A DNA stretch of 64,000 nucleotides from an uncultured Bacilli bacterium (lineage in GTDB: Bacteria > Bacillota_I > Bacilli_A > RF39 > UBA660): NCBI GenBank assembly GCA_934085595.1, contig CAKOHK010000001.1, forward strand, positions 145,705 through 209,704, in the 5' to 3' direction. Under the pieces are notes generated by a model, which made no database searches, was not told where the DNA came from, and worked only from the letters and a program-made list of their open reading frames with translations. A program made the position numbers and the translations under genes. Of this stretch, positions 1 to 64,000 are shown piece by piece. Positions within the stretch are counted from its first letter, which is position 1, and the number at the start of each line of letters is the position of its first letter.

Positions 1-127
1 TACTTCTATAACTTTCACTATTTATAGTAAACTTAGCATAGCTTATTGCAAGTACCGGACAAAGTCCAATAAGTACTAAAACTATAAAAATGTTTTTCTT
101 TATAAAATAAGATATTTTCTTCTTCAT
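1..127 (-). CDS. 5' end (about 42 codons) of another TasA/camelysin-like secreted-protein paralog. The gene runs off the window start
   Basis: ATG at 125-127 on the minus strand. Translation MKKKISYFIKKNIFIVLVLIGLCPVLAISYAKFTINSESYRS matches the N-termini of 20301..21818 and 62479..64000. DNA of 1..100 is near-identical to 63904..64000. Confidence 0.6.
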   Translation of the reverse strand, partial: MKKKISYFIKKNIFIVLVLIGLCPVLAISYAKFTINSESYRS

Positions 128-169
128 ATTATCTAGTTTACCCATAAACATACACTTCCATTATATAAA

Positions 170-200
170 ATTATAACAGGTACCCCCTCCCCCATGTCAA
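170..200 (-). promoter_or_regulatory. Candidate sigma-A promoter for the paralog starting at 127, with an interrupted homopolymeric tract (G5AG5 on the coding strand) in the spacer
   Basis: Minus strand reads TTGACA (195-200), then a 19-nt spacer tGGGGGaGGGGGtacctgt, then TATAAT (170-175). A second TATAAT lies just downstream. Confidence 0.45.
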
Positions 201-266
201 GTAGCAAACAAAAAGCGAACACTTTTGTGAACGCATTTTAATATCATATTCCTTTAAAAATCATTT

Positions 267-2429: not shown

Positions 2430-2437
2430 ATCTTCTC

Positions 2438-4891: not shown

Positions 4892-5902
4892 TTACATAGC
4901 AAGTGCTAATTTCTCAAGACTATCATTATATTTGCTTTTAAGTCCTAGTTCTAATATCTCTCCAAAATGGTCACATAAATTATCAAACTCACTAGTTGCA
5001 TAGCGATCTTGATTTGGACATATTTGATAATTAAATCCATAATCTACAAGAAATGGTCTAATTAATCTATCTTGCCATCTTTCTCCTTGATATAAAATTA
5101 CTCTTTGCCCACATACATTAACTTGCATCCATCCAAGTACTTCAGTAGCAAAACTTTCTCTTATATCAGCAGTAACGTCACATACTCTTTGATATTCTTC
5201 ATATTTAGCACTCATTCTATTAAACGAATCTATATCATACTCTTTAAGTCCATCCATAAATGTTCTAAATAAACTTCCATGATCTTGTCTTCCATAACCA
5301 CCAGCAGCTTTATCATCATATTGACTAACAAGCTCACCATTAGGAAGTATCCAACCTCTAAAACTACTATTTCCACTTTTAGATGTAATATCTTCCATAA
5401 ACGAATCTATTATTTGCTTTTTATATTGTTCTCTTCTTTCTCTTTCAAGTCTTTCCCTTTCAAGTCTTTCTCTTTCGAGTCTTTCCCTTACAAGTCTTTC
5501 TCTTTCAAGTCTTTCTTGATCAATATCATCGCTTGTATTTGTTTGACTTTCTTCATTCTTAGTTTCTTCAGTAGTCTTACTAGTTTTACATAAATAAAGT
5601 GCTATTCTTTCAAGCTTTCTTATAACAGAATCTGTATTTTCACCTTTTGCAAGTTCATTTCTACAATAAGTTGTTAATTGAAGTAAACTCACTCCAGTAT
5701 CACGGCTTAAAGTAAGCAATAAATCATTTAGTACTACAGCACTATTAATATTACTATAACCGTTATTTAAATTACCATATCTTACATATCCTCTATCATC
5801 ATTACTATAGATTATTTTATCATTATTATTATACTTTATATCGTTATACTTATTATTTTCAATTTTTATATTATAATATTTTTTATCATCATAATATGAC
5901 AT
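4892..5902 (-). CDS. Hypothetical protein with a central (RERLE)n repeat
   Basis: 336 aa. The central ERLERERLVRERLERERLERERLERERRE is encoded by a 15-nt tandem DNA repeat. The C-terminal half is Cys/Trp-containing and unrecognised. Confidence 0.4.
   Translation of the reverse strand: MSYYDDKKYYNIKIENNKYNDIKYNNNDKIIYSNDDRGYVRYGNLNNGYSNINSAVVLNDLLLTLSRDTGVSLLQLTTYCRNELAKGENTDSVIRKLERIALYLCKTSKTTEETKNEESQTNTSDDIDQERLERERLVRERLERERLERERLERERREQYKKQIIDSFMEDITSKSGNSSFRGWILPNGELVSQYDDKAAGGYGRQDHGSLFRTFMDGLKEYDIDSFNRMSAKYEEYQRVCDVTADIRESFATEVLGWMQVNVCGQRVILYQGERWQDRLIRPFLVDYGFNYQICPNQDRYATSEFDNLCDHFGEILELGLKSKYNDSLEKLALAM
5436..5520 (-). repeat. In-frame 15-nt tandem repeat (about 5 copies) encoding the RERLE repeats
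   Basis: Plus strand reads ctttcaagtctttcc / ctttcaagtctttct / ctttcgagtctttcc ... inside CDS 4892..5902. Confidence 0.7.
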
Positions 5903-5995
5903 AGATTTACCCCCTTAATAAAAGTATTTACATTATAGCATATTTCTTCCATTTTGTCAAATTATTGTTCGTACGCAAAACCTTAAATAATATAA

Positions 5996-6451
5996 TTATT
6001 CTATATCATCTTTTTCGTATTTTTTCTTTTCTTCCATCATAAACTCAGTAATTTTATTTCCAATCTCAACAGCTCCATCAGGATCAATATTAGATAAATA
6101 TACATTTTCCTTAACTGTATCTATTTCTATATCACTCCATATTAGATTCTTTCTAATCTTTAAATCATTATACATATCAGGAGTAATAGTTGTTAAAACA
6201 TAACCCCATAACAATCCTTTCTGCCCTATTAATATTCTTTTATTAGTTAAAGCCATAACACAAGAATTAATAATCATAAAAGAACTTTCATTCTTTTGAG
6301 CACAAAAAGCATATAATACCTCTTCCCCAGGATTTAAATGCTTTCTAATAACTTTCGCATGAGATGTAACACGAAAAGCTACTGTCCTTTTATATTTCTT
6401 CTTAAACAACTTTGCAAGTTTAACTACATCCATTTTCTCTTTTCCTTTCAT
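5996..6451 (-). CDS. Bacterial PH-domain (YdbS/YdbT-like, bPH_2) protein
   Basis: 151 aa. LTNKRILIGQKG followed by a beta-rich tail is typical of bPH_2. Overlaps the upstream gene by 4 nt. Confidence 0.45.
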   Translation of the reverse strand: MKGKEKMDVVKLAKLFKKKYKRTVAFRVTSHAKVIRKHLNPGEEVLYAFCAQKNESSFMIINSCVMALTNKRILIGQKGLLWGYVLTTITPDMYNDLKIRKNLIWSDIEIDTVKENVYLSNIDPDGAVEIGNKITEFMMEEKKKYEKDDIE

Positions 6452-7149
6452 TTTCTTAAAGCCCTAACATTAACCCTATCAAGCACATTATCCATATAAA
6501 ACTCACCACTAAATATATCACTATTATCTTCTCTAGGATTATAAAATCTATCAAAGATATCAGTCATTTCCCTATCAAACACACTAGAAAAATATTTATA
6601 ATTTTCTCTTATTTCTCTACTTTTCATACCCATTATTATATTAGTACTTGTTATAAATAATCTCTCTTTATCTTTAGACATATCTTTGCTTACTCTTCTA
6701 ACACTATCCATATCACATAATAATATATCTCCATCATTATAAAGTATATTAGAAGTATTAACATCCCAATAATTAAATCCATAAGATAATATTAATCTAT
6801 ATAATTTATTAAGTTTAATAACAATATCTATTCTTTTTTCAGGATCAAGATCTCCCATTAAAAGCAATCTTCTTAAATTATCATATTCCTTATAATACTT
6901 CATCACATACCCAGCAAATATATCTTCTCTATTATTCCTAACAACTATCTTTTTTAAAGGAACCACTGATGATGGTATATTAAGCCTATTTAACTCTTCA
7001 ATCAAATCTTCTCTATAAGCATACTCTTTAAAATCATTATATATTTTATAGCAAAACTCATCATCATGATAAATAACACTTTCATAATGTGGCACTCTTA
7101 TACTATCTAGTTTATATATATTTAAGTTTTTTATATTAACTTTTTCCAT
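6448..7149 (-). CDS. Protein-kinase-like fold protein, possibly a spore-coat-associated kinase-like protein
   Basis: 233 aa. WDVNTSNILY...LLCDMDSV resembles a kinase catalytic loop (D.N..N) and a DFG-like DMD. Confidence 0.35.
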   Translation of the reverse strand: MEKVNIKNLNIYKLDSIRVPHYESVIYHDDEFCYKIYNDFKEYAYREDLIEELNRLNIPSSVVPLKKIVVRNNREDIFAGYVMKYYKEYDNLRRLLLMGDLDPEKRIDIVIKLNKLYRLILSYGFNYWDVNTSNILYNDGDILLCDMDSVRRVSKDMSKDKERLFITSTNIIMGMKSREIRENYKYFSSVFDREMTDIFDRFYNPREDNSDIFSGEFYMDNVLDRVNVRALRK

Positions 7150-7248
7150 AACTATATAATATCATATATTTGTAAAGTATACAAAATTATTAAATAAAAT
7201 TAAATATTTTAATCATTATATTATATAATTACATTAGAGGTAATTTAT

Positions 7249-8181
7249 ATGAAAAAAATATTATTTGCATTTTTATCACTTTTATTAACTATTAGTATTA
7301 TCTATACTATATATTATTTTATTAGTAAAGATAATAATATTAATAAAAACGATAACAACATAACTATTAAAGAAGATGAATTAACTACTATTGGTTATAC
7401 TAAAGAAGAAGCTAAAGAAATAAGAAAACTATTTACTAAAGAAGAAATCGATACTTATTTACTTAAAACTAAATATAATGATTTATTATCATATAAAAAA
7501 TGTAAAGCATTTAATATAGAAAACTTAAATAGATATATTGCTTACAAAGAAAAAAATAATTATTCTATAGAAAACATAGTTAATTATGTAGAAATAAACT
7601 TAGATAAAGAGTTCTATACCGATATTAAAGAAATAGATTCTTCTTCTATTAATAAACTTACTTTAGTAAATAAATATAATAAACTTATTGATAATTATGA
7701 AGCATCTGATTTAATAACACTTGATAAAAATTATTCTTCAAATAAACAAAAGGTTAAATCTGAAATATTTCCATATTTAAAAAATATGTTTGATGATGCT
7801 AAGAAAGAAGGACTTTCTCTTAAAGTAATATCTGGTTATAGAACACATTCTCTTCAAAATACTTTATTTAATAATTCGAAAAAAAGAAATGGTTTAGATC
7901 ATGCATTAATGTATTCAGCTCGTCCAGGTCACTCAGAACATCAGTTAGGTTACGCTGTTGATATAAATACTGTACAAGAAAAGTTTAAAAATACAAAAGA
8001 ATACGCATTCTTAAAAGATAATGCATATAAATATGGTTTTATAGAAAGATATAAAGAAGGAAAAGAGTTTATAACTGGTTATGGATATGAACCATGGCAC
8101 TATAGATATGTTGGAATAGATGCTGCTAAAATCATATATGAAAATGATTTAACTCTAGAAGAATATTTATTACTTTATTAA
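7249..8181 (+). CDS. D-alanyl-D-alanine carboxypeptidase, VanY/M15 family, membrane anchored
   Basis: N-terminal TM. SGYRTHSLQ, SARPGHSEHQLGYAVDI and EPWHYRYVG are the VanY zinc-peptidase motifs. Confidence 0.8.
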   Translation: MKKILFAFLSLLLTISIIYTIYYFISKDNNINKNDNNITIKEDELTTIGYTKEEAKEIRKLFTKEEIDTYLLKTKYNDLLSYKKCKAFNIENLNRYIAYKEKNNYSIENIVNYVEINLDKEFYTDIKEIDSSSINKLTLVNKYNKLIDNYEASDLITLDKNYSSNKQKVKSEIFPYLKNMFDDAKKEGLSLKVISGYRTHSLQNTLFNNSKKRNGLDHALMYSARPGHSEHQLGYAVDINTVQEKFKNTKEYAFLKDNAYKYGFIERYKEGKEFITGYGYEPWHYRYVGIDAAKIIYENDLTLEEYLLLY

Positions 8182-8882
8182 AATATTTTCTTAACAAACA
8201 ATAAATAAAAGCATAAAACAACAAGAAAACTACAAATAGTAATTACACAAATAATTACTATTTTTTTACTATTATAAGATAGTTCCCTAACACTATCTTC
8301 TTCACTTTTAAATACACTCTTAGTTTTACTAACATGAATAACATATTTATTATTATTCATATTGTTATTAGAAGTAATATTTACTATAACATCATTATTC
8401 CCATCATTAAAATTCCCATTATTTTCAATCTTAACTGTACTTATAGAACTATCTGTTTCATAATTAAATCTTAAATACTCATTATCATAAGCATCTATAT
8501 AATAATCATGTATATCATTCTTAAAATCTATATCATATCCATCTATATTAAAATATTTAAATGTAGCTATATTCTCATCATCATGACTATAATTTTTATA
8601 TACTCTTATAGTATACTCTCCACTCTTACTACTATTAATTTTAAATATATTTTCTCCATTAATTATATTAAAAACTCCATATCCATTTACTTCTTCATCT
8701 TTATCTTTAGATACACTTATTAATACACTATCTTTATCACTAAAATAATTATATACTTTAGTATTTATATCAAAATAAGGTATAACACTTTCATTATTAA
8801 TTTTTATATCAGATAAAGCAAATACTCTATCAAAACAAAAAGAAAAGATACACAAAATAATTATATAAAGTTTCTTTTTCAT
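8178..8882 (-). CDS. Secreted, C-terminally membrane-anchored hypothetical protein (beta-sandwich-like)
   Basis: 234 aa with a signal peptide and a C-terminal TM. No clear family. Confidence 0.35.
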   Translation of the reverse strand: MKKKLYIIILCIFSFCFDRVFALSDIKINNESVIPYFDINTKVYNYFSDKDSVLISVSKDKDEEVNGYGVFNIINGENIFKINSSKSGEYTIRVYKNYSHDDENIATFKYFNIDGYDIDFKNDIHDYYIDAYDNEYLRFNYETDSSISTVKIENNGNFNDGNNDVIVNITSNNNMNNNKYVIHVSKTKSVFKSEEDSVRELSYNSKKIVIICVITICSFLVVLCFYLLFVKKIF

Positions 8883-8890
8883 AGCTTCTC

Positions 8891-11266: not shown

Positions 11267-11291
11267 TTCAAAACCTCCATTAAATACTATA

Positions 11292-12143: not shown

Positions 12144-12156
12144 TTTAAAACCTCCT

Positions 12157-13346: not shown

Positions 13347-13365
13347 AAGCTCCCTTAAATCTGTA

Positions 13366-14562: not shown

Positions 14563-14587
14563 TTTAAAACCTCCCTTAAATATAAAA

Positions 14588-15709: not shown

Positions 15710-15735
15710 TTCAAAACCTCCTTTAAATACTTATA

Positions 15736-16902: not shown

Positions 16903-16914
16903 TTCAAAACCTCC

Positions 16915-20261: not shown

Positions 20262-20289
20262 AAAAGAAAAAACTCTACACATGTAGAGT
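20262..20289 (-). terminator. Rho-independent terminator downstream of paralog 20301..21818
   Basis: Hairpin actctacaCATGtgtagagt (20272-20289) followed on the minus strand by a T-run (plus aaaagaaaaa 20262-20271). Confidence 0.55.
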
Positions 20290-20300: not shown

Positions 20301-21818
20301 TTATTCTATAACAAATGGATTATCTTTACTTCCATCACCTGACATATATTGCACACTCGAAGATAAAAATAATACGGGTCTTATATTATTATCAGTGTTA
20401 GTAGGCAAATAACTAGTTAAAGATCCATCATTAACTATGTTCATTACATTAGCAGCACTACCAGAACGAGGCGAAATTGTCCAATAATAAGAAGAATTAG
20501 CTAACCAATTAGTACTTGTACAAGTAGAATTATTATATGAACTTCCTAAAGTAGATGTATTATAGCATCCGCTACTTGCATACATATAATCACTCGGATA
20601 TACAAGTCCAACTTCTCCATCCCATGTTTGTTTATTTCCACTTGGCACACTTGTACTTCTTTCTTGAGTATATACTTGTTTTGTATTTCCAAAACTCATT
20701 CCATTTAATACTATATTTCCAAGATACCATTTTGTACTGCTTATTTGATTTCTTGCTTCAGCCGTTAATCCATTACTTGCATATGTTCCAGTTCTATTGT
20801 AATAATTCCCACTATTTAATGTTGTCTTTAAAGATGCTGTTGTCCAATCATTTTTTGATGCAGAAAACGCCACTTTTCCTATTTGATTCCTAATTATTTT
20901 TACTTTATTTTCTTTAGTATATGTTCCATCTTCATTTGGTGTTTCCACTTCAAATACCCCAATTATTCTCCATCTCTCAATTTCATCATTAAATGTTATA
21001 TAATTATTTGGACTTTTACCTTGATATCTATATTCAGTTGAATTATATTTTTGATTACCTGTTGCAGTTTGGTCAATTTTGGTTAGCTTCAAAGTTTGAT
21101 AATTACTTACTAAATACGTCACCAAAGATTTACTTTCTTCAAAATATAAACTGCATTTAGTTTGTTTATTTGAACCTATAATTATTTTTTTATTTAAAGT
21201 ATCATATTCTACTGTAGCATCATTATTACAAGTATAACTCTTTAACTTATAATATTTATTTAAATCGAGTTCATTTACTCTCTCACTATCAACATATAAT
21301 GCTGTTGTTTCAAAATCATATTTCCAGTAGTCATCTAAAATTTCTGTATATGTATCAAGAACTTTAATTTCATCTACGTCGTTAAATGAATATCCCCCAA
21401 ATACCATAAGTGATAATGTTTGTTTTTCATTGCTTTCATTTTTAATTATAAGTGATATTGTTCTTTTAGTGAGTATTCCTCCAAATGCTGGTTCAAGATA
21501 ATCTGAAGCATATTTAACATCAATGTAATCGTTATTTAAATATGCAAGTTTATAGTTAGTAGAAACTGCATTTAAACTTGTTATTTCTATAGTATGTTCT
21601 GTTTCTCCTGGATCTATATCAATAGTATAAGTGTTTTCATCATCTATTTTTATAGAATACAAAAGTTCCGAAATATACATTTCATTACTTCTATAACTTT
21701 CACTGTTTATAGTAAACTTCGCATAACTAAATGCAAGTAACGGACAAAGTCCGATCAACACTAAAACTATAAAAATGTTTTTCTTTATATAATATATTAC
21801 ATTTTTTCTTATACTCAT
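20301..21818 (-). CDS. Secreted TasA/camelysin-like protein with the shared unrecognised C-terminal domain (family member P1)
   Basis: 505 aa. Signal peptide ends ...LLAFSYAKFTINSE (SipW-cognate-like). C-terminal 260 aa carry NYQTLKLTKIDQTATGNQKYNSTEYRYQG, WRIIGVFEVETP, NQISSTKWYLGN, YPSDYMYASSGCY and NIRPVLFL. Confidence 0.6.
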   Translation of the reverse strand: MSIRKNVIYYIKKNIFIVLVLIGLCPLLAFSYAKFTINSESYRSNEMYISELLYSIKIDDENTYTIDIDPGETEHTIEITSLNAVSTNYKLAYLNNDYIDVKYASDYLEPAFGGILTKRTISLIIKNESNEKQTLSLMVFGGYSFNDVDEIKVLDTYTEILDDYWKYDFETTALYVDSERVNELDLNKYYKLKSYTCNNDATVEYDTLNKKIIIGSNKQTKCSLYFEESKSLVTYLVSNYQTLKLTKIDQTATGNQKYNSTEYRYQGKSPNNYITFNDEIERWRIIGVFEVETPNEDGTYTKENKVKIIRNQIGKVAFSASKNDWTTASLKTTLNSGNYYNRTGTYASNGLTAEARNQISSTKWYLGNIVLNGMSFGNTKQVYTQERSTSVPSGNKQTWDGEVGLVYPSDYMYASSGCYNTSTLGSSYNNSTCTSTNWLANSSYYWTISPRSGSAANVMNIVNDGSLTSYLPTNTDNNIRPVLFLSSSVQYMSGDGSKDNPFVIE

Positions 21819-41120: not shown

Positions 41121-41602
41121 AACAATACTCCCCTTATAAATCCAAATATAAGTCCAAAAATAACACCATATAATATAATACTTCCAGTAAGTTTAAACAT
41201 ATTACCGCCTATTCCCTTAACAAATCCTTCATTTCTATAATCCATACTACTACTTGTCATAGAATTAGCAAATCCAGTACTAGGTACTATAAGTCCACTC
41301 TTAGTAAAAGATAATACTTTATCAAAAAAACCAAGTCCTGTTAAAAGAGAACCAACTAAAACAAATGTAATAAAAACAAGTAAAAATGAATCACTAGAAT
41401 TAATGCTAAGTGTTCTAATATAGTAGTTATACAAATACTCTCCTATAAGTCCCATAATACCTCCACTTATAAAAGCAATAAAAACATTTTTAAATGTACT
41501 TTCTTTCTTAACAATACTACTAACTAATTTATCATATTCTTCATTATTCATATTAATATTGTGCTCTTTATATTTAAGTTCATACATAAAAAATAGTGCC
41601 AT
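41117..41602 (-). CDS. spoVAC: Stage V sporulation protein AC
   Basis: 161-aa polytopic membrane protein. First gene of the tricistron. Confidence 0.65.
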   Translation of the reverse strand: MALFFMYELKYKEHNINMNNEEYDKLVSSIVKKESTFKNVFIAFISGGIMGLIGEYLYNYYIRTLSINSSDSFLLVFITFVLVGSLLTGLGFFDKVLSFTKSGLIVPSTGFANSMTSSSMDYRNEGFVKGIGGNMFKLTGSIILYGVIFGLIFGFIRGVLL

Positions 41603-41629
41603 TTTTAGACACTATATTATTCTAGTAAA

Positions 41630-43630
41630 CTATTTTATTTCAAATGCAAAGCACGAACTTCCATTACCTGTAATATATGTTACATTAGATTTAAGATATA
41701 ATGTAGGCTGAAAGCCAGGAAAAGCACTATTTGTATCTTGAGGCTGAACTTCGCCATTAGCTGACACAGCTATTGAATTATGGAATATATTAAAGAAAGT
41801 AGGCATAGGTGAAATAGTTAAATTATGAGAATTAACATATAACCAATTTGTATTCCTACAAATACTAGCTCTATAATCTGTATTACAAGTATTTAAATTT
41901 GAACTACATGATGAATTATTATAATCACACGCTTTTTTTGTACTATCATTATAGCAACTACTACTTGCATACATATAATCACTTATGTATATTAACCCTA
42001 CTTTTCCATCCCAAGTTTGACTATTTCCACTATCTACACTTGCGCCTCTCTCTTGGATATATACTTCTGGTGCTGTTTTAAGAAGTCCACCATTTGATGC
42101 ATTATAATCTATGTTACCTATATACCATTTTGTACTACTTATCTGATTTCTTGCACTGTTTGTTAATCCATTATTAGCATATGTACCAGTTCTATTAAAA
42201 TATTCTCCACTATTTAAAGTTCTCATTAATGACGATTTTGTCCAATTGTTTGTACCTGCAGAATCCCAAGCAGCAGCTCCAATTTGATTTCTCACTATTT
42301 TCACTCTATACTGTTTTGTATAGCCATTACCATTAGGAGTTAATACTTCAAAGACTCCAATAATTCTCCACACACCATTATCCATATTTATTCCGGTTGT
42401 CCACATTCCTGTTTCTCCATTAAATATAATATAATTGTTAGGATTTGCCCCTTGATATCTATATTCTGTAGTAGCATAATTTTGATTACCTGTTGCTGCA
42501 TGTGATATTTTAGTTAAACCTAAAGTTTGATAATTACTTATAAGACAATTTGCTAAAGTTTTACCAGAGCATAAAGATTCAATAGGATTATTCCATCTAG
42601 CAGTTAAAACAGTATTTTTAGTTGCTATAGTATTGCTTGTTACTAGATTTCCACTTTCATCATACCATCCGCCAAAATTATATCCGCACTTGCTTGTACT
42701 ACACAATGTTCCATATGTTTCACCTTGCATAACATTCTTTTTTGAGCATTCACTTCCACCATTAGTATCATATACAAGAGTATACATTTTCAAACTCCAC
42801 TTAGCATAAAGAGTAATATCGTTTTTTACTATATCAGTACTTTCAATTTTAGTTTCATATGTTTTACTAGTATACCATCCATCAAAAGTATAATTGTCTT
42901 TACTAGGAGTACATAAATCGCCATAAGCTTGCCCTTTTTGGATACTATCACTCGCGCATCCTCTACCACCATTATTATCAAAAGTTATCTTTTTCATATC
43001 TTTTTCAAATGATACATAACAGTCCATATCATCACTAACAGATAATAATGTTAAAGTATTATTATCATTTAACATACCACATGTATTAGAAGAATACTTA
43101 TATCCAAGAGATGGAATATATTCAAAACTAACTCTATCTAAATATCCAGCATACACTTTATTTTTATTAACTTTTCCCATACTTTCATCTGTACTAAATA
43201 AACTAACTATATACATATTTGTAAATCTCCATGGATCTTTATATGTACCTTTACCTGTAATTTTAGTTCCTTTTTTTACATATTCAGTAACTCTTATATT
43301 ACTATCATCACTATTACTATTATCAGATATCTTTTTACCACTAATCTCCCAGTATGAAAAAGATGCTGTAAGATAACTTAAATTATTTATTTTTGATGTA
43401 TTAACTTCATAATTATTTATAAGTCCTCCAGTAATAAACTTATTATCATAACTTATATTTTTATTATTATATATAAATGGAACTCTATCTTCTTTTATTA
43501 AATATATTTCATTCTTAACATTATTATTTATATAATTATTAGAAACACTTATAGTATCATTAAAAGAATATGCTTTTACATTTATTATCGTAAATAAAAC
43601 TAATAAAGCACTTATAATTATCTTCTTCAT
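41630..43630 (-). CDS. Secreted protein with two Listeria-Bacteroides (Flg_new) repeats and the shared C-terminal domain (family member P2)
   Basis: 666 aa. Signal peptide ...INVKAYSFNDT (TasA-like AxFND). Two ...YTFDGWY...LYAKW / YNFGGWY...LTARW repeats. C-terminal domain carries LTKISHAATGNQNYATTEYRYQG, WRIIGVFEVLTP, NQISSTKWYIGN and YISDYMYASSSCY. Confidence 0.6.
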   Translation of the reverse strand: MKKIIISALLVLFTIINVKAYSFNDTISVSNNYINNNVKNEIYLIKEDRVPFIYNNKNISYDNKFITGGLINNYEVNTSKINNLSYLTASFSYWEISGKKISDNSNSDDSNIRVTEYVKKGTKITGKGTYKDPWRFTNMYIVSLFSTDESMGKVNKNKVYAGYLDRVSFEYIPSLGYKYSSNTCGMLNDNNTLTLLSVSDDMDCYVSFEKDMKKITFDNNGGRGCASDSIQKGQAYGDLCTPSKDNYTFDGWYTSKTYETKIESTDIVKNDITLYAKWSLKMYTLVYDTNGGSECSKKNVMQGETYGTLCSTSKCGYNFGGWYDESGNLVTSNTIATKNTVLTARWNNPIESLCSGKTLANCLISNYQTLGLTKISHAATGNQNYATTEYRYQGANPNNYIIFNGETGMWTTGINMDNGVWRIIGVFEVLTPNGNGYTKQYRVKIVRNQIGAAAWDSAGTNNWTKSSLMRTLNSGEYFNRTGTYANNGLTNSARNQISSTKWYIGNIDYNASNGGLLKTAPEVYIQERGASVDSGNSQTWDGKVGLIYISDYMYASSSCYNDSTKKACDYNNSSCSSNLNTCNTDYRASICRNTNWLYVNSHNLTISPMPTFFNIFHNSIAVSANGEVQPQDTNSAFPGFQPTLYLKSNVTYITGNGSSCFAFEIK

Positions 43631-45116: not shown

Positions 45117-45198
45117 TCCTCTAATAAATTATAGCATATCAATTATATTTTTAGTAGTATTTTATATTTAAAATTAAAAGTAGTACTTAGTACTACAA

Positions 45199-46680
45199 TT
45201 ATTTAATTATAAATGGATTAGTGCTTTTTCCGTTTCCAGAAACAAATTTTACATCAGCATTAAGATACACAGTAGGTCTTATATTGACATCACTAGCAGA
45301 ATCTACACCATTAATATATAAAGTACCTTCACTCTGTGCAATAAGTACAGCGTGTTGGTCTATAGATTCAGGTGACAACAACCAATAAACGGTATTATTC
45401 ATCAGCCAATTAGTACTAACGCACTCATCATCTTTATAATTTCCAGAGTCTGCCCCATCATAACATACATTACTAGCATACATATAATCACTAGGATATA
45501 AAAGTCCTACTTTGCCATCCCATGTTTGACTATTTCCATCCCATACATCAGTACTTCTTTCGCGTGTATATATGCTTTCTGCTGTTCCATAACCACCAGA
45601 AGAATAAACCTGATTACCAAGGTACCATTTCGTAGTACTTATTTGACTTCTAGCTTCATCAGTTAATCCAGTAGTTGTATAATCGCACAAAGGATTAGTA
45701 TCATCATATGGATGAAAATATATTGAACACCCAAGAGGAGAATATCCATATTGTCTATTAAAATATGCTCCTTCATTTAACAAAGTCATAAGTGATGCTT
45801 TTGTCCAATCATTAACAGAGCCAGAAGCAGAACTAAAATCCCAAGCTGCTTGTCCAATAGAATCTCTAACTATTTTAACTTTGTTTTCCTTTTTATAAGT
45901 TCCATCACTCTGAGGTGTTTCTACTTCAAATAATCCAACTATTCTCCACAGTCCCTCTTCTTTATTAAATGTAATATAATTGCTAGGATCTTTCCCTTGA
46001 AATCTGTATTCAGTAGTACTATATTCCTGATTTCCTGTAGCTTCATGCGTTATAGATATTAAATCAAGTTTTTTATAATTATCTATTAAAGTTTGAGCAA
46101 GTGTAGCTGTTTGAATACTTTCTGCGACACCAAGAACACCATAAAACTTCTTTCCTTGATTATAGTTTTGCGCTTTATCAGTATAATTAACAAAACGAAT
46201 TGAAACAGTGTAAGTATGAGTTTCTCCAGGTAATATTTTTTGTGATTCTTTATATGGATACAACACTTCACCCTTATTAGCTATAGCCTCAGTAGTAACT
46301 TGTGGCACAATAACTGTAGAACCATTAACACAGCTTCCATTATCAACACCACTACTACCACAAACGCATCTAATCATAAGTTCATCTTTTTGAATCCCAT
46401 TATAAAGCTTCTGCCATCCAAGACTATAATAAGTTTCTTCATTTCCTTTGTTTTCAACAGTTATAGTTTTCGTAGTTGTCCATCCAGGCTCTATATTTTC
46501 TGCAATTATTTGATTACCATCAGTATATTTAAGTTCAAGCTTAGTAGTACCAACATCTATAGTTTCAGCCACATCATTACCACTAACAGTCTGACTAAAA
46601 TACGCATAAGTAAGCCCAACCGTTAATAAAAATGCAACTGTAAGTACACTTCCATAAATAAACTTTTTATCTTTCATCAT
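45199..46680 (-). CDS. Secreted TasA/camelysin-like protein with the shared C-terminal domain (family member P3)
   Basis: 493 aa. Signal peptide ...VGLTYAYFSQT (AYFSD-type SipW-cognate motif), then TTKLELKY...NIEPGW...ITVENKG as in TasA. C-terminal domain carries ITHEATGNQEYSTTEYRFQG, WRIVGLFEVETP, SQISTTKWYLGN and YPSDYMYASNVCY. Confidence 0.65.
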   Translation of the reverse strand: MMKDKKFIYGSVLTVAFLLTVGLTYAYFSQTVSGNDVAETIDVGTTKLELKYTDGNQIIAENIEPGWTTTKTITVENKGNEETYYSLGWQKLYNGIQKDELMIRCVCGSSGVDNGSCVNGSTVIVPQVTTEAIANKGEVLYPYKESQKILPGETHTYTVSIRFVNYTDKAQNYNQGKKFYGVLGVAESIQTATLAQTLIDNYKKLDLISITHEATGNQEYSTTEYRFQGKDPSNYITFNKEEGLWRIVGLFEVETPQSDGTYKKENKVKIVRDSIGQAAWDFSSASGSVNDWTKASLMTLLNEGAYFNRQYGYSPLGCSIYFHPYDDTNPLCDYTTTGLTDEARSQISTTKWYLGNQVYSSGGYGTAESIYTRERSTDVWDGNSQTWDGKVGLLYPSDYMYASNVCYDGADSGNYKDDECVSTNWLMNNTVYWLLSPESIDQHAVLIAQSEGTLYINGVDSASDVNIRPTVYLNADVKFVSGNGKSTNPFIIK

Positions 46681-46797
46681 CCACCTCTATTCTCTATAAG
46701 CATTATACTCTTTTATAAGCGTTCAAGTCAATACAGTTTTTGGCAAATTGCATTTTATTATTTAAATAAGTTTATATAATAGGATTTTCAAAAAAAC

Positions 46798-49560: not shown

Positions 49561-49568
49561 ATGAACAT

Positions 49569-55106: not shown

Positions 55107-55328
55107 AAAACCTCCTTCATAAAATATATATTAGCTAACATTTATTATTTATTATTTTTTTACATAAGCACCATTACTGATTACTTCTCTGCCCAAGAAA
55201 TCCAGTACTTAACATACAATTAGAACATTCGCACAAATAATGCTTGGTTCGATGTACCTTAAAGGTCTTCTAACAATATCATATCATTTTTTTACAGATT
55301 TACAACAAATTATCACTTATAAAAATTT

Positions 55329-55390
55329 AAAAAGCCTAAGGCTTCTAAAGTTTCATAGGCACTTTTCAATATATAATATTGCATTATTTA
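55329..55390. repeat. Intergenic repeat A, copy 1 (hairpin-containing, about 60-80 nt)
   Basis: aaaagcctaaggcttctaaagtttcataggcacttttcaatatataatatt is about 80% identical to 57836..57900. aagcc-taa-ggctt hairpin with a T-run on the minus strand. Confidence 0.55.
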
Positions 55391-55503
55391 AAACAAAAAA
55401 GCAAGTCAGACGCATCTAACTTGCTCAGATGGGATCCGAAGATACACCATCGCCATTCACATTTATAATATACCATAATTGCAAAAATTATGCAATAATT
55501 CGA

Positions 55504-56490
55504 TCAACTTTTTATAAATTTTCGTAAAGCTGATAATTTATTCTTTGTATCAGAATATATAATCTTATTATAAATACTAATGGAAATCTTATTTCTAAAC
55601 TCCTCAATAATTTTTTCATAATCATTTACAAATTTATTAATTTCAGTTTTAGTAATTCCATACTTTTTTAATAAAACTGAAATAATAAGAACATAATCAG
55701 TAATTGTATTAAAATCTATTCCAGTACAACATATTTCATTTTCTAGATATTTAGATAATTTAGTATCAATTTGCCCGTCTTTAAATCTCACATCAAAAAC
55801 TACATCATTATGTGCAATTGAATTTCTTAATGATTTAATTAAATACATAATCTTTTCAGGAAATTTAGCATTAGTATCAAATGCAATATTTATATTCATT
55901 TCTTTATCAATTTTATTTCTAACTTTAAATTCTAAACTTTTAATTAAATCCGCAAACGTTCCTAATGTAATTATTTCAAATATACCCCAAATTGGAACAT
56001 ATCTATCTTTTGAATAAAAATGACTAACAATTTTATTTTCATTATTATAACTTCTAGATAAAGAAGAATAAATACTATTTTGTACTGATAATCTTTGCTT
56101 CATTTTCTTTTTATATTCTTCGCTAGTATTACTATTTCTATAATCAGTCATACCATTTTCATAAATAACATTAAATTCATCAGTTTTATACTCTTCAACT
56201 AACATTTGAAGTACAATATTTTTTGAAATCGTTTCTATTTGCATTATTTGTGGATATAATAAACTTTTTAACTTAGAGTCAAAATCAACTATTGAAACTA
56301 TTTCATCAAAACTAGATAAATTTATTCTATTTTGTGTATTATTAATGTATCTATAACCCTTATAACCATGATAATAACCTATATTTCTTAAACTCTTTTT
56401 ATCTTTAGTACCTCCAATAGAAATATTATGCTTTTTTCTTAAATATATCATTAAAGCATTTGTTGTTCTAACTTTCATTTTTATATTCAC
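55504..56490 (-). CDS. Abi_2 (AbiD/AbiF-like) abortive-infection family protein
   Basis: 328 aa. N-terminal LRNIGYYHGYKGYRYI matches the Abi_2 NIGYYRLSGY signature. Confidence 0.6.
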   Translation of the reverse strand: MNIKMKVRTTNALMIYLRKKHNISIGGTKDKKSLRNIGYYHGYKGYRYINNTQNRINLSSFDEIVSIVDFDSKLKSLLYPQIMQIETISKNIVLQMLVEEYKTDEFNVIYENGMTDYRNSNTSEEYKKKMKQRLSVQNSIYSSLSRSYNNENKIVSHFYSKDRYVPIWGIFEIITLGTFADLIKSLEFKVRNKIDKEMNINIAFDTNAKFPEKIMYLIKSLRNSIAHNDVVFDVRFKDGQIDTKLSKYLENEICCTGIDFNTITDYVLIISVLLKKYGITKTEINKFVNDYEKIIEEFRNKISISIYNKIIYSDTKNKLSALRKFIKS

Positions 56491-56567
56491 CTCATTTCTA
56501 CATATAGAAAAAGAGCAAAATAAATCTTATTCCTAATAAGTCACTACTTGCCCTTATTTTTTCTTAT

Positions 56568-57434
56568 TTAAATATATTTAATATTATTTCTGATATTTAT
56601 GTTTGGTATTCTTCTAACAAGAGTTTTCTGTAATTCTGTTTTTTCTCTACAAAAAGCTAAAGAATGCTGATTTTTTTCATCTTCAAAATCTTTATCTGTT
56701 AATCCATAATCATCTAATAATAACTCATGAAACGTTTTTGTAATTTCTATTTCTTTTTTATCATCATCAGTTAATTCTTTTTTTGCATCTAACTGATTAA
56801 ACTTTTCTTCATATGCTCTTATTTTTCGAGCATGTTCAAAATCCCATTGTGGAGCAGGTCCACCATAAGTATTAGGTCTAGAATGATATGGATTTCTCTC
56901 ATCGTATAATCTATCTAATTCACTTATTACTCGCATCAATTCTGCTTCCCTATGTTCTTTACTATCGATAGTTTGAAATAAAGAAATATTACCTATTTTC
57001 ATTGTTTTATAACCACTCGGTATTTTTGAACTAAAGCCCATAGGACCTTCATGATAATCAAAGTCAAATAATTTAAAGCTTCTTTCTTCGCCTAATGAAG
57101 CATATACTTCTAATCCTTCAATATCATCATTATCATCAGATATTTCAAGCTCTGATTCATTTTGTTTAAATATGTTTAATGCCCTATTATAAATATTATA
57201 CATTGCTATTCTTTTATATACTTCTAATTCTGATATAGCAGCTCTATCATTATCACTAATGTACTCTCTGATAACTGAAAATTCCAAATCTATTAAAGAC
57301 TTTAAATAGTTAATCATTGAAACATTTAGTATTCCCTTATAACCTTTCAAAAGTTCAATTAATTCTTCCCTAGTGTTTATTTTATTCCAATTCTCATTCA
57401 TTTGCATTATTTCCATTTTTAAACCTCCCTTCAT
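56568..57434 (-). CDS. Hypothetical protein (288 aa), possibly co-transcribed with the Abi gene
   Basis: Acidic, cytoplasmic, no motif. Confidence 0.4.
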   Translation of the reverse strand: MKGGLKMEIMQMNENWNKINTREELIELLKGYKGILNVSMINYLKSLIDLEFSVIREYISDNDRAAISELEVYKRIAMYNIYNRALNIFKQNESELEISDDNDDIEGLEVYASLGEERSFKLFDFDYHEGPMGFSSKIPSGYKTMKIGNISLFQTIDSKEHREAELMRVISELDRLYDERNPYHSRPNTYGGPAPQWDFEHARKIRAYEEKFNQLDAKKELTDDDKKEIEITKTFHELLLDDYGLTDKDFEDEKNQHSLAFCREKTELQKTLVRRIPNINIRNNIKYI

Positions 57435-57710
57435 CTAATCATTTATTATAGCATAATTTTTATAATTTGAAACAAAAATTGTTTTTTTGAGTATTATCTT
57501 TCAAAAGTTAGGTTTTAAATAGTTTTTCTTGTTTCAGATAATTTAATCTTATTATTTAAATTTTAAATAAACATCTCGTTAGAATAATCAAAAGATATAA
57601 AGATAATATTATTAATTATAATTCTATGTGGTTCTAGATAAGTAAGATTGGTCTTATCAATACCCCTCAAATCACCATTAATAACAATTGGCTTAACTCT
57701 ACAAAACCAT

Positions 57711-57900
57711 AAAAAGTTCAAGTAGATTTTCCTATGGTGTCCTAAGGAAAGAAGTAAAACAACTTTTAAGCAACATTTAATAGTTAGTAATAAAATAAAC
57801 TAATACAAATATATCATAAAAATTTATAAAATGAAAAAGACCTAGGGCTTCAAAAGTTTTATAGGCACATTTTAACAAATAATATACACTATTTATTGAT
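57711..57900. repeat. Intergenic repeat B copy 1 (57711-57815) followed immediately by repeat A copy 2 (57836-57900)
   Basis: B reads aaaagttcaagtag...tatggtgtcctaaggaaagaagtaaaacaacttttaagc...aatagttagtaataaa..aactaatacaaatat and is about 85-90% identical to 59463..59575. Confidence 0.55.
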
Positions 57901-58111
57901 AATTTATAGTTAAGTATCAATTTTATTGTTAGTTTTATCACTAGTTTTATCTTTATCGAATAATGATTTTTTTAATTCTTTCTAATTCATAAGTTTTTCC
58001 ATATCCATTTGGTCATATAAATATTTATAACATAATTCACTTCTAACCACATAAAAAGAGCGTAGTATTCCTTATTATATTAATAAGTCTTTACTAGCCC
58101 TTATTTTTAAT

Positions 58112-59462: not shown

Positions 59463-59600
59463 AAAAGTTCGAATAGTTCAAACATATTTACTTATGGTGC
59501 CCTAAGGGAAGAAGTAGAACAACTTCTAGGGCAAAAGAAATAGTTAGTAATAACTATTAACTAATATAAGTATAACACAAATTTTCAAAAAAACATTAAA
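59463..59600. repeat. Intergenic repeat B copy 2 plus a truncated A-like start
   Basis: aaaagttcgaatag...tatggtgccctaagggaagaagtagaacaacttctagggc...aatagttagtaataac..aactaatataagtat. Here GCCCTA...GAAG...CTTC...TAGGGC forms a nested stem. Confidence 0.55.
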
Positions 59601-59657
59601 TAATGTTCATATTTAAGTAAAATATGTTATAATATCAATCACTAAGGAGGTCTTTTT

Positions 59658-60485
59658 ATGAATGCTTATGTTGAAAGTGGAATTTCTATTTTGAATGACA
59701 CTACTAAAGATTTGAAAAATTTAAATGAACTTGGAATATATTTGGCTAAACAAACTGATATTGATGCTTTAAAATCATTAAAACTTTTAATTTTAGCCTC
59801 TGAAAATTCATTATTAGATAAAGAGTTTGATATTAATAGTATTAAGTCTTATACCGAAACAATTATGCGTAATACGTATAAAAGAAATGAAACAGTAATT
59901 GGTAACTTATCTATGAATCCACAAAATATTGCTCTGGAATTAATGGACTATATTTTACATAATTATAAAGTTGATTTAACTGTTCAACCCTATGATAGCG
60001 GTTATACTGTATTCGATTTTTGGGTTCGTTCACTTGTTAGAATCGAAGATGACCAAGACATATTTTATAAAAGATATGATATGATTGATAAAAAGTTAGA
60101 AATTGCTTCGTACATGATTAGAAGTGAATTATTGAATGTTAATCAAATTGATTATTTACTAATTGCATTTGATAGATGTATACAGCGTCAACATTCTTAT
60201 ACAAAAGAACAATTGTTAAGAATGCAAGAAATGCTTAATAGTGTGAAATTAAGAGAACAATTAGAACTTAATGTTGCAAATTTAATTACTCAAAATAAAA
60301 TACAACTTAATTGTTCTAGAGATGAACTTATTAAAGGTTTATCAACGACTGGGACTCAAGTAGATCAACATTCTGGGAAAGAAGATTTTTGGGGTGAAAT
60401 ATCGAATTATCAAATGTTAAATGACCAATGTGTATATATGTTACAAACTATACCTACATTAGTTAAGAAAAAAATAATAAAATAA
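59658..60485 (+). CDS. Hypothetical protein (275 aa)
   Basis: Strong RBS aaggagg. No motif. Confidence 0.4.
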   Translation: MNAYVESGISILNDTTKDLKNLNELGIYLAKQTDIDALKSLKLLILASENSLLDKEFDINSIKSYTETIMRNTYKRNETVIGNLSMNPQNIALELMDYILHNYKVDLTVQPYDSGYTVFDFWVRSLVRIEDDQDIFYKRYDMIDKKLEIASYMIRSELLNVNQIDYLLIAFDRCIQRQHSYTKEQLLRMQEMLNSVKLREQLELNVANLITQNKIQLNCSRDELIKGLSTTGTQVDQHSGKEDFWGEISNYQMLNDQCVYMLQTIPTLVKKKIIK

Positions 60486-60618
60486 TACTATTTACACACG
60501 CTAATTGATTATGTCGATTTGCAAGTGTGTTTCTAAATTATTAAAATAAAAACTAGTTTCAATTTAATTTGAGAGTAGTTTTTATATTATCTCGAAAAGT
60601 TCGAGTTTCCTATCAATC

Positions 60619-60695
60619 TGGTGCTGAAAACAGGAATCGAACCCGCAACCTACTGATTACGATTCAGTTGCTCTACCTAATTGAGCTATTTCAGC
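60619..60695 (-). tRNA. tRNA-Thr (anticodon CGT)
   Basis: GCTGAAATAGCTCAATTAGGTAGAGCAACTGAATCGTAATCAGTAGGTTGCGGGTTCGATTCCTGTTTTCAGCACCA. Anticodon loop is auCGUaa. Confidence 0.8.
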
Positions 60696-60776
60696 ATATA
60701 TAAATTATATGACAATATTTAATAAATGTATAGATTTTTATTATTTTTTTAGATATAATTTTCATGGAGGAATAAA

Positions 60777-60977: not shown

Positions 60978-61004
60978 ATAAAATAAAAGAACACTTAAGT
61001 TCTT

Positions 61005-61718: not shown

Positions 61719-61776
61719 TTTAAACACCACCACAATTTTATCAAAAAAATAGAAATAATTAAATATCATTTCTAAT

Positions 61777-62424
61777 TTATTTTTTTAATTTAGGACATAC
61801 CCCATACATTCTTTTATCTTTATCTAGTGCTTCTTCTCTACTTATAAGTCCAAAATATGCCGGCTTACACTTATCTTTTTCACTTTCATCTTTTGCTGGA
61901 TACTTTCTATTACAACTTTCACACGTTAAATAATACTTATATTTAGGATTAGAATCAGTTAAAATAGTTCTAAAGTATTCACAATCACAGCATCTTACTT
62001 CATTAACTTTATATTTATTGCCTTTTCTAAGTATATCAGAACTACTAACTTCATCAAAATCAGGAACTTTAATAGAAGGTAAATCAAGTATCAAATCAGC
62101 AAGTCTATCAGAACCATTTTCAATTAAAGTTGAAGCACTTTTAACCATATTTGAAAGTTTGCCATATATTGATTCCAAAGTACCTTTTTCATCAGTAAGT
62201 TTTTTTAATCTAGATATAACTCTTCCCTTTTCATCAAGTGTAACATTAGGCATAAACTTAATATTTTTACATACAAAACCAATAATATACATCTTTTCTT
62301 CCATATTATTTCCAAATACTGTAAAAGTATCTAAAAAATCATATAAATTCATATCACCAGAATATGTAATACCTTTTTTAAGTATCATTGCATCTAAATA
62401 TACTCTTCTTTTATTATCTATCAT
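61777..62424 (-). CDS. Cys-rich hypothetical protein
   Basis: 215 aa. C-terminal CCDCEYF...CESCNRKY...CKP...CPK cysteine cluster. Confidence 0.4.
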   Translation of the reverse strand: MIDNKRRVYLDAMILKKGITYSGDMNLYDFLDTFTVFGNNMEEKMYIIGFVCKNIKFMPNVTLDEKGRVISRLKKLTDEKGTLESIYGKLSNMVKSASTLIENGSDRLADLILDLPSIKVPDFDEVSSSDILRKGNKYKVNEVRCCDCEYFRTILTDSNPKYKYYLTCESCNRKYPAKDESEKDKCKPAYFGLISREEALDKDKRMYGVCPKLKK

Positions 62425-62478
62425 AATAACCCCCTAAAGCATCTAGATTATATCACATATATGTTTGCATGTCAATTA

Positions 62479-64000
62479 TTACTTAATTATAAACGGACTA
62501 TTACTGCTTCCATTACCTGAAACATAAGATGTATTTGCATCAAGGTATACTGACGGACGTACATCAACATTTGAAAGAGTAACTTCATCAGAGCCTAAAT
62601 TACCACTACTACCAACATACATAACACGAATCATACCAGAAGTTGGTGATATATTCCAAAACCAATTACTAGATGAATACATCCAGTCAGTATTTATGCA
62701 AGTTTCATTTCTATAATCATAGCTTGAACCACTATAACTAAATCCATACATTGTATCATTATTATAGCATCCACTACTTGCATACATATAATCACTTGGA
62801 TACACAAGTCCTACTTTTCCATCCCACGTTTGATTATTTCCACTCCACACACTTGTACTTCTTTCTTGAGCATACAACGCTTTTGTATTTCCATAGCCAA
62901 CACTATTTGTCCAAATCGCATTACCTAAATACCACTTTGTACTACTTATTTGATTTTTAGCTTCATTTGTTAAACCATTACTTGCGTATGTAGCAGTTTT
63001 ATTATAATAATCTCCACTATTTAGTACTCCCATTAATGATGTAATTGCCCAGTTATTATAATTGGATCCTGTTTTTGATGTATTCCACGCTTGTGTACCT
63101 ATGGAATCTCTTATTAACTTCACTTTATACTCTTTTGCGTATCCACTACTACTAGGTGTTTCTACTTCAAACACACCAACAATTCTCCACACTCCAGTTT
63201 CACCATTAAATGTTATATAGTTATTTGGGCTTTTTCCTTGATATCTATATTCAGTTGTTGCATAATTTTGATTTCCTGTTGCTGATTGTGATATTTTAGT
63301 TAGTCCTAAAGTACCATAACTTAGCATCAAATAATCACTAAACTTATTATATTCTTCAAAATACAAACTACATTTAGTTTGTTTAAAAGTATTTATAGTC
63401 AAATCATTAGTTTTCGCATCATATTTCACAGTTGCATTATTTGTACAAGTATAATTAACAAGATTATATTTTTTATTACTATCAAGTTCATCCACTCTAG
63501 TATTATCTACATAAAAAGCAGTTGTCTCATAGTCATAATGTAAATAGTTTGTATCTATTTCTGTGTATGTATCAAGTACTTTCACTTCCTCTACATCATT
63601 AAATAAATATCCTCCAAAGACCATAAGTGATAATGTTTGTTTTCTGTTACTTTTATTTTTAATCGTAAGTGATATTGTTCTTTTAGTAAGTATTCCACCT
63701 AGTGATGGTTCTAAATAATCACCCGCATATCTGATTTCTAAGTTGGTGTTATTTAAATATGCTAATTTATAATTTGATGATATTGCATTTAAACTAGTTA
63801 TCTCTACTGTATGTTCCATTTCACCAGGTTCCATCTCTATTGAATACACATTATTTCCATCTATTTTTATAGAATATAAAAGCTCTGAAATATACATTTC
63901 ATTACTTCTATAACTTTCACTATTTATAGTAAACTTAGCATAACTTAGTGCTAGTACTGGACATAAACTTATCAACACTAAAACTATAAAAATGTTTTTC
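62479..64000 (-). CDS. Secreted TasA/camelysin-like protein with the shared C-terminal domain (family member P4). Its 5' end runs off the window
   Basis: ...KNIFIVLVLISLCPVLALSYAKFTINSESYRS... N-terminus is about 70% identical to P1. C-terminal domain carries LTKISQSATGNQNYATTEYRYQG, WRIVGVFEVETP, NQISSTKWYLGN and YPSDYMYASSGCY. The true start lies beyond 64000. Confidence 0.6.
   Translation of the reverse strand, partial: KNIFIVLVLISLCPVLALSYAKFTINSESYRSNEMYISELLYSIKIDGNNVYSIEMEPGEMEHTVEITSLNAISSNYKLAYLNNTNLEIRYAGDYLEPSLGGILTKRTISLTIKNKSNRKQTLSLMVFGGYLFNDVEEVKVLDTYTEIDTNYLHYDYETTAFYVDNTRVDELDSNKKYNLVNYTCTNNATVKYDAKTNDLTINTFKQTKCSLYFEEYNKFSDYLMLSYGTLGLTKISQSATGNQNYATTEYRYQGKSPNNYITFNGETGVWRIVGVFEVETPSSSGYAKEYKVKLIRDSIGTQAWNTSKTGSNYNNWAITSLMGVLNSGDYYNKTATYASNGLTNEAKNQISSTKWYLGNAIWTNSVGYGNTKALYAQERSTSVWSGNNQTWDGKVGLVYPSDYMYASSGCYNNDTMYGFSYSGSSYDYRNETCINTDWMYSSSNWFWNISPTSGMIRVMYVGSSGNLGSDEVTLSNVDVRPSVYLDANTSYVSGNGSSNSPFIIK

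Follow-up and report, generated by a model that had tools for sequence, protein, structure and literature searches.

The window analysed here, a 64,000-nt stretch of the genome of an uncultured Bacilli bacterium (contig CAKOHK010000001.1), contains five minus-strand genes (W1 to W5) whose products begin with signal peptides. In the four proteins read to their C-termini, N-terminal modules of several kinds are joined to a shared C-terminal domain, called the head below. The preliminary description of this sequence proposed a modular, exported family encoded by dispersed genes. Translation confirms all five open reading frames (ORFs), two of which (W4 and W5) are clipped by the ends of the window. 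The coordinates of the genes and their parts are collected in Table 1. W4 has the same architecture as W1, with which it is 66% identical. W5 encodes a signal peptide of the W1 type running into the motif SYA/KFTINSES (the slash marks the predicted cut), and in a repeat search of the window its DNA matches the stretches coding for the W1 and W4 signal peptides at 88–90% identity.

The C-terminal head

When W1 to W4 are aligned they share a single collinear C-terminal domain of ~270–300 aa. Whole-protein identity to W1 is 40–66%, and almost all of the ~90 invariant columns lie inside this domain. A hidden Markov model (HMM) of the head scores 289–363 bits on W1–W4 with zero other matches in the six-frame translation of the window, and because it finds these four alone the similarity is far above chance. 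The shared domain is present in four proteins; W5 ends after 42 residues. The conserved sequence blocks quoted for it were essentially correct. The deviations are small: W3 has RFQG and PSNY, W4 has TDWM, and in W2 the Trp of W.ISP is absent and FQP replaces IRP.

The head region of W1–W4 has no match in Pfam or NCBIfam and no sequence match in the PDB, which was searched with one of the proteins and with the head profile. The relationship is seen through its homologues. Among 5.8 billion proteins searched, 243 are homologues of the W1 head, and those at 38–42% identity carry PF19789 (DUF6273), with phmmer E-values of 1e-30 to 1e-33 and 88% query coverage. A precomputed PF19789 match is present in 13 of the 120 homologues listed. 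On rescanning, P0120 and P0082 score 26.6 and 25.5 bits respectively, above the threshold of 23.5, over the region equivalent to the head. The PF19789-positive proteins and the window heads fit one collinear alignment and are homologous over the whole domain. In P0085 the same head is carried on the N-terminus of a type IV pilin.

An AlphaFold2 model of the head, built from a 48-sequence alignment, has a predicted local distance difference test score (pLDDT) of 92.3 and a predicted template modelling score of 0.92. The predicted structure is an enlarged C-type-lectin-like fold, as in the N-terminal domain of the immunoglobulin A (IgA) protease of Thomasclavelia ramosa (IgAse/ThomasA; PDB 9qa6). 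This is the closest structure, at a sequence identity of just 17–18%. Other matches at the level of the fold are to a Bacteroides fimbrial protein (score 6.5), the Bdellovibrio fibre tip Bd2740 (5.8) and TvpA, a target of a diversity-generating retroelement (DGR; 5.3). Published work describes DUF6273 as C-type-lectin-like both in receptor-binding proteins of phages (PMC10743442; bioRxiv 2024.10.15.618418) and in the IgA protease (PMC12237041). Judged from the homologues and the model, the head is a divergent branch of DUF6273, a known domain with a solved fold, and not a new fold. The statement that it could be assigned to no family has to be withdrawn, and the accompanying guess of a lectin- or adhesin-like module agrees with the fold of the model. 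The polar core motifs of the head are strongly conserved in the 48 diverse homologues.

Likeness to the Bacteroides type V pilus protein BACOVA_04982, the C-terminal domain of Legionella Lcl and Bd2740 is at the fold level only. These fibre- and pilus-tip adhesins use different assembly systems, and their heads are half the size.

The N-terminal modules and the signal motif

Likeness to the TasA, CalY (camelysin) and BsaA proteins is seen in W3. It scores 28.3 bits on the Pfam model Peptidase_M73 (PF12389; cut-off 22.5), the match covering residues 15–80 only (model positions 15–75 of 196). The match of W3 to the BsaA family TIGR04090 is weak (25.2 bits, E = 1.2e-5, residues 7–164), under the cut-off of 60, and on the 34-position model of SipW-cognate signals, TIGR04088, it scores 12.7 bits, under the cut-off of 19. 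A profile of the W3-type N-domain has AbpX, a TasA-like archaeal matrix protein, as its top PDB match, at a non-significant E of 0.19. W1, W2 and W4 have no match to Peptidase_M73 in the Pfam scan and none to TIGR04090, and TIGR04088 finds no match in W1, W2 or W5.

As read from the sequence, the signal peptide of W1 opens with a basic n-region and has a hydrophobic core of 16 aa, with small residues at positions −3 and −1. It is followed by the domain termed N1. A word-indexed search with the N-region of W1 gives 16 close homologues. An N1 profile built from 12 sequences matches 995 representative proteins at E ≤ 1e-3 and 330 at E ≤ 1e-10, and in almost all of them N1 starts at residue 25–40, directly past the signal peptide. 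The two-Cys module that follows (~60 aa) is common to many homologues (hhalign 98%). In the AlphaFold model of full-length W1 (mean pLDDT 81) residues 3–43 form a helix and residues 34–60 have pLDDT below 50. The strands of a beta-sandwich at residues 63–154 are of medium confidence (block-mean pLDDT 51–85), and the two-Cys module and head are confident. No TasA or camelysin profile or structure is matched by N1 of W1 or W4. Comparison of N1 with the W3-type domain by hhalign gives 64–82%, the best being 82% with E = 1e-5, and N1 of W1, W4 and, as judged from its 42 residues, W5 appears only remotely related to the camelysin-like type. Of the three N-regions originally called TasA-like, W3 keeps that designation; for W1 and W4 these searches do not support it.

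The hydrophobic core is followed by the sequence Y-F-S-Y-A-x-F-T-x3-E-x9-G-x-L-x-Y in 88 of 141 complete N1-family proteins and in 0 of 120 controls. W1 carries it in the same register. The motif is 84–98% conserved on either side of the predicted cut. Beyond the cut there is F at +2 in 90%, T at +3 in 84% and E at +7 in 85%, with G-x-L-x-Y at +17 to +21. Such conservation is not expected of an ordinary signal peptide, and x-Y-A-x-F-S/T of W1, W3, W4 and W5 is a conserved family signature rather than a mere AXA site. The conserved N1 residues past the cut presumably resemble the N-terminal strand of CalY/TasA. The signal-peptide ends are as first described, AKFTINSE in W1, W4 and W5, AYFSQT in W3 and AYSFND in W2. 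The first four proteins resemble the TasA/CalY type at the level of the motif. For W2 the designation is not supported, since the motif is missing from VKA/YS, which has the look of a standard substrate of signal peptidase I (SPase I).

The unassigned N-region of W2, of ~190 aa (residues 21–212), has one known class of homologue, P0050. It is followed by the two Listeria–Bacteroides repeats recognized earlier, which are recovered as Flg_new. The first 120 aa of W2 end in G-K-G-T-Y-K-D-P-W like the C-terminus of the head, but as a candidate mini-head they were rejected (hhalign 9%).

Across 114 N1-family proteins the C-terminal partners are glycine-rich domains (12 proteins) and DUF6273 (7), and also Flg_new, leucine-rich repeats, ricin lectins and DUF285. 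ALK_LTK_GRD, too, is often joined to N1 in the wider family. In P0123, P0124 and L082 (6956–8647) N-modules of the W1 and W2 types are fused to glycine-rich C-terminal domains and the head is absent. Three short proteins (P0129, P0131 and P0135; 148–150 aa) fuse the first ~108 residues of the W1 type directly, at the shared motif ASDY, with a segment from late in the head; these could result from a microhomology deletion or be an assembly artefact.

One distant relative, L037, has an operon directly upstream of its family member that encodes an archaeal/ER-type signal peptidase I at the end of a membrane protein. The peptidase scores 80 bits on TIGR02228 (cut-off 52) and 68 on the SipW model (cut-off 190). 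Two further, small products of the operon share the signal motif (VYAAYSQT), and one of them has a sub-threshold match to Peptidase_M73. The association with a peptidase is thereby shown for this relative, not for the genome of the window. The operon lies at 5390–9742 of a locus from an uncultured Bacilli genome bin and includes genes for a 374-aa membrane protein and a 195-aa protein; between its end and the downstream match to the family head are ~250 nt. The membrane protein fused to the peptidase is polytopic, and the 195-aa protein carries an ASYNQT signal.

Genomic setting and variation between strains

The window is of low GC content, 25–29% across its length, with genes mostly on the minus strand. 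The neighbours of the family are housekeeping genes: a penicillin-binding protein (PBP) gene beside mraZ, nifS, a gene for a CofE-like ligase, recX, murB and spoVAC/AD, and further rpsD, an alanyl-tRNA synthetase (AlaRS)-like gene, rluB, tex and an M3 peptidase gene. Because of these flanks the loci are taken as chromosomal and dispersed, without an island. Hairpins within ~15 nt of the stop codons of W1, W2 and W3, together with the promoter-like site of W3, are consistent with separate transcription units.

Table 1. Coordinates of the five genes, their domains and adjacent sequence elements in the 64,000-nt window
Feature	Position	Strand	Remarks
W5	1..127	-	5′ end only, 42 codons; gene continues beyond window start
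Terminator-like hairpin	20272..20289	-	12 nt past W1 stop; consensus match only
W1	20301..21818	-	Complete, 505 aa: signal peptide, N1 beta-sandwich, two-Cys module, C-type-lectin-like head
W1 segment C-terminal to two-Cys module	20304..21125	-	
W1 two-Cys beta module, residues 170–228	21135..21311	-	Joins N1 to head; pLDDT 83–90
W1 N1 domain, residues 34–165	21324..21719	-	Mature N-terminal strand and immunoglobulin (Ig)-like beta-sandwich
W1 signal peptide, residues 1–33	21720..21818	-	Predicted cut after S-Y-A33
Terminator-like hairpin	41593..41615	-	Directly past W2 stop; consensus match only
W2	41630..43630	-	Complete, 666 aa: signal peptide VKA/YS, residues 21–212, Flg_new repeats, head
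W2 cassette (second repeat and head)	41630..42796	-	Exchanged in L082 (blastn)
W2 lectin-like head, residues 359–666	41633..42556	-	Head HMM 242 + 56 bits; longer Cys-rich loop
W2 Listeria–Bacteroides (Flg_new) repeats, residues 214–347	42590..42991	-	Flg_new 90.3 bits, two stretches; Flg_new_2; TIGR02543
Terminator-like hairpin	45180..45196	-	3 nt past W3 stop; consensus match only
W3	45199..46680	-	Complete, 493 aa: signal peptide (TYA/YFSQT), camelysin/TasA-like N-domain, lectin-like head
W3 lectin-like head, residues 194–493	45202..46101	-	21-aa insertion after YFNR
W3 camelysin/TasA/BsaA-like N-domain, residues 27–190	46111..46602	-	Peptidase_M73 match
Promoter-like site TTGACT-18-TATAAT	46702..46731	-	Upstream of W3; 11/12 positions; consensus match only
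W4	62479..64000	-	Frame 62479–63999; 5′ end clipped by window edge, ~12 N-terminal residues absent
W4 lectin-like head	62482..63342	-	Head HMM 307 bits

A scan of one genome per species gives at least 588 relatives, with a maximum identity of ~44%. Almost all come from uncultured gut Bacilli or from metagenome-assembled genomes labelled ‘Tenericutes’ or Mycoplasma, the hosts being human, chicken, rabbit and mouse. In the set of 80 kept, a genome has up to five loci, and 20 of 81 loci have two to four tandem copies. Translation of the relatives with genetic code 4 adds no full-length copies, and an alternative code was rejected. Viral contigs contain one relative in 2.9 million.

The species of the window, with a GC content of 26% and spoVA genes, is present in public human-gut metagenomes, where Tex is 98–99% identical and many contigs carry exact matches to murB and the gene for the CofE-like ligase. 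Orthologues of W3 are 97.8–100% identical in eight strains, those of W1 are 100% identical in three, and that of W2 in L083 is 98.9% identical. In L091 the W1 allele is 72% identical within flanks that are 97.6–99.5% identical. At the W2 locus of L082 the first 278 residues are retained (98% nucleotide identity), and the second repeat and head are swapped for a glycine-rich domain. The blastn alignment runs at 98.3% identity down to window position 42796 and resumes at 99.0% from 41596, with nothing collinear between; the product is annotated Flg_new + Gly_rich_2. In L081 only the last ~140 nt of W4 are found (window 62479–62619, L081 15093–15232), directly after pheT at 98% identity, which looks like the remnant of whole-gene loss or replacement. 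A paralogue near pheST in L081 (P0001) has an N-terminal half resembling W3 and a head nearer to those of W1 and W4, and L092 has another paralogue, of 503 aa.

It is thus only specific loci that vary, as the L091 allele and the L082 head swap. General hypervariability between strains had been considered from the best match to the W1 head, 62% against 98–99% for Tex, a value from a homology database that failed to return near-identical clusters; with W1 and W3 orthologues 98–100% identical in most strains it was rejected. The whole-window repeat search revealed similarity at the level of paralogues only (60–90%) and no template/variable repeat pair of a DGR, and there is no reverse-transcriptase domain among the ORFs scanned.

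Several further features of the window were observed. Seven paralogous genes (344, 291, 249, 398, 373, 388 and 368 aa) form a tandem array at 10232–18021 on the minus strand. Conservation is high at their 5′ ends and in the regions upstream, with an 89-nt repeat at 66–88% identity that includes the start codon. Three members were scanned against Pfam, with no match save a weak one to Metallophos in the last, and the array is kept in L090–L093. Two segments, 55123–58076 and 59500–60619, have no counterpart in L081, which is elsewhere 94–98% identical, and look like strain-specific insertions. The first holds an Abi_2 (abortive-infection-like) gene (55504–56490) and a 288-aa ORF, and the second a 275-aa plus-strand ORF. 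Within the ORF at 4892–5902 (minus strand), ~eight tandem 15-nt units at 5420–5539 encode a Leu-Glu-Arg-Glu-Arg/Lys pentapeptide repeat. An extended sigma-70 consensus, TTGACA-17-TATAAT with an upstream TG (12/12 positions; 62447–62475, minus strand), is located between the stop codon of W4 and a conserved 215-aa Cys-rich ORF (61777–62424). Between W3 and murB lies the gene for a 177-aa membrane-anchored protein (44583–45116, minus strand), which has no family match and is 97–100% identical in other strains. The AlaRS-like gene (47616–49361, minus strand) encodes just 581 aa, comprising the catalytic core and second additional domain, and is 99–100% identical in other strains; a typical bacterial AlaRS is longer, ~870 aa.

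Probable surface adhesins with exchangeable heads

On balance these proteins are probably modular, strain-variable, exported surface or fibre adhesins, a paralogous family of a low-GC, spore-forming Firmicute of the human gut. In the mechanism envisaged the protein would be exported via its N-terminal Sec signal peptide. Cleavage would follow the conserved S/T-Y-A and would plausibly be the work of a SipW-type peptidase whose gene lies outside the window. The conserved segment that thereby becomes the N-terminus is disordered in the monomer model; it could serve as the donor strand does in TasA/BsaA and attach the protein to a TasA-like filament, insert it into one, or hold it on a subunit fixed in the membrane. 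The stalk or assembly module would be the camelysin/TasA/BsaA-like domain in W3, N1 plus the two-Cys module in W1, W4 and W5, and the N-region plus Flg_new repeats in W2. For the lectin-like head the ligand would be a glycan or a protein, carried by host mucus, by food particles or by other microbes, with binding specificity diversified through paralogy, divergent alleles and whole-head replacement rather than by a DGR. The multiple gene copies, the strain-variable alleles and the exchange of a head at a fixed locus suggest adhesins that face the host or the surrounding community and are subject to diversifying pressure. The N-terminal export and assembly module is the constant part of these proteins and the distal head the exchangeable part; the head is therefore expected to be the ligand-binding end and not a wall anchor.

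Assembly of TasA and BsaA is SipW-dependent and proceeds by donor-strand exchange, the strand being supplied by an N-terminal segment that is disordered; heteropolymers may be formed (PMC11580942, PMC7395162). The conserved and probably disordered mature N-terminus of W1, W3, W4 and W5 resembles this donor strand (PMC11580942). That the N-modules engage in donor-strand exchange, so that the proteins cap or decorate sortase-independent TasA-type filaments as adhesin subunits, is nevertheless a tentative proposal that we regard as doubtful. Members of the TasA/CalY/BsaA group are ~200–260 aa, consist of the fibre domain alone and have genes adjoining sipW, whereas the window proteins fuse a module of ~130–165 aa to a 270-aa head and have no adjacent sipW.

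Several observations weigh against the adhesin reading. The assignment of the head to DUF6273 rests on transitive homology and fold: PF19789 (gathering threshold 23.5 bits) is unmatched by W1–W4 even at E ≤ 1 in the Pfam scan, the head profile finds no PDB chain by sequence, and neither 9qa6 nor PF19789 is reached directly from the window proteins or the head profile. The strongly conserved polar residues (YRYxG, PNNY, ER and PSDY) could mark a conserved site, where an adhesin head might be expected to vary. We know of no ligand for any DUF6273 domain. IgA is cleaved without need for the N-terminal domain of the IgA protease (PMC12237041, PMC12402451). The Peptidase_M73 and SipW-cognate models match 0 of 114 N1-family proteins. 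S-Y-A also meets the AXA rule, so that a general SPase I could cut there. Lastly, no signal peptidase is encoded in the 64-kb window by motif scan and phmmer with a SipW-type query, in keeping with the absence of sipW already reported, and within 10 kb of related loci there is one at just 1 of 81, that of L037.

These last points favour an alternative, that the proteins are plain membrane-tethered surface proteins, with an uncleaved anchor or an SPase I cut, in which no filament or SipW takes part and the N1 or TasA-like domain is a spacer. No sipW is near 80 of 81 relatives, N1 has no structural match to TasA, and TIGR04088 is below its cut-off for W3 and unmatched by W1. Against it stand the strong conservation past the predicted cut, unusual for a plain signal peptide and resembling the N-terminal strand of TasA/camelysin, the score of W3 above the Pfam camelysin threshold, and the L037 operon, which ties the family to an archaeal-type signal peptidase. 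We give it a real but minor chance of being correct. The head might instead anchor the protein to a wall polymer of its own cell, in the manner of CWB2, SLH or WxL, leaving the N-modules as the functional part. A conserved C-terminal domain with differing N-modules in many dispersed copies is typical of wall-binding families. W1–W4 present just this arrangement, and polar core motifs conserved in 48 diverse homologues would suit one common ligand. Yet the N-modules are stalk-like (Ig-like, TasA-like, Flg_new) rather than effector-like, in the wider N1 family the N-terminus is constant and the C-terminus variable, and at the W2 locus the head has been swapped for an unrelated glycine-rich domain. 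In the IgA protease DUF6273 lies opposite the sortase-anchor end (PMC12237041). The family is moreover abundant in genome bins labelled Tenericutes or Mycoplasma. Organisms of these groups typically have no cell wall. Anchoring to the wall therefore seems improbable.

The IgA protease differs in other ways. Its DUF6273 domain, which has a zinc site, is N-terminal and joined to an M64 protease with a sortase anchor, whereas the window heads are C-terminal and joined to TasA-like, N1 or Flg_new modules. That the head is itself an enzyme, on a scaffold like that of lectins or the formylglycine-generating enzyme, is highly improbable: its structural scores do not exceed those for C-type lectin domains that are not enzymes, no activity is known for the closest structure, the N-terminal domain of 9qa6 (PMC12237041), and no enzyme-family profile in Pfam or NCBIfam is matched. 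The phage DUF6273 receptor-binding proteins (tentaclins and Mtd-like DGR targets) belong to the same superfamily as the window heads and share their C-type-lectin-like fold, the domain there serving to bind a ligand at the end of an Ig-like stalk (PMC10743442). They are phage structural proteins with a C-terminal variable region diversified by a retroelement, whereas the window genes are chromosomal, encode signal peptides, lack DGR repeats and owe their diversity to paralogy, divergent alleles and the exchange of heads. Origin of the window genes as receptor-binding proteins of a prophage or phage is the least probable explanation and can scarcely be entertained, given that all five have signal peptides and stand singly among the PBP/mraZ cluster, nifS/recX, murB, spoVA and rluB, with no DGR repeat pair in the window, no reverse-transcriptase domain among the ORFs scanned and a single relative in 2.9 million viral contigs.

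Both main parts of the proteins belong to known superfamilies, and to call the family previously undescribed was too strong as regards its domains. It stands for this particular fusion: as far as the literature searched shows, the fusion, the N1 module family, the multi-copy organization and the head exchange between strains have not been described. DUF6273 is common in gut bacteria and phages, and here it occupies the exchangeable outer end of secreted proteins with N-termini like those of TasA/BsaA fibre subunits. If the N-modules do engage in donor-strand exchange, this would be the first functional context for a widespread domain, giving a handle on colonization specificity and a concrete system in which to find DUF6273 ligands. 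The family would then be a Gram-positive counterpart of the chaperone–usher tip adhesins, with interchangeable lectin-like, glycine-rich, leucine-rich-repeat and ricin heads shuffled between strains of gut bacteria. Should the N-modules not join filaments, this would be an ordinary family of surface proteins; if they do plug into TasA-like filaments, gut Firmicutes would possess matrix fibres with exchangeable adhesive tips.

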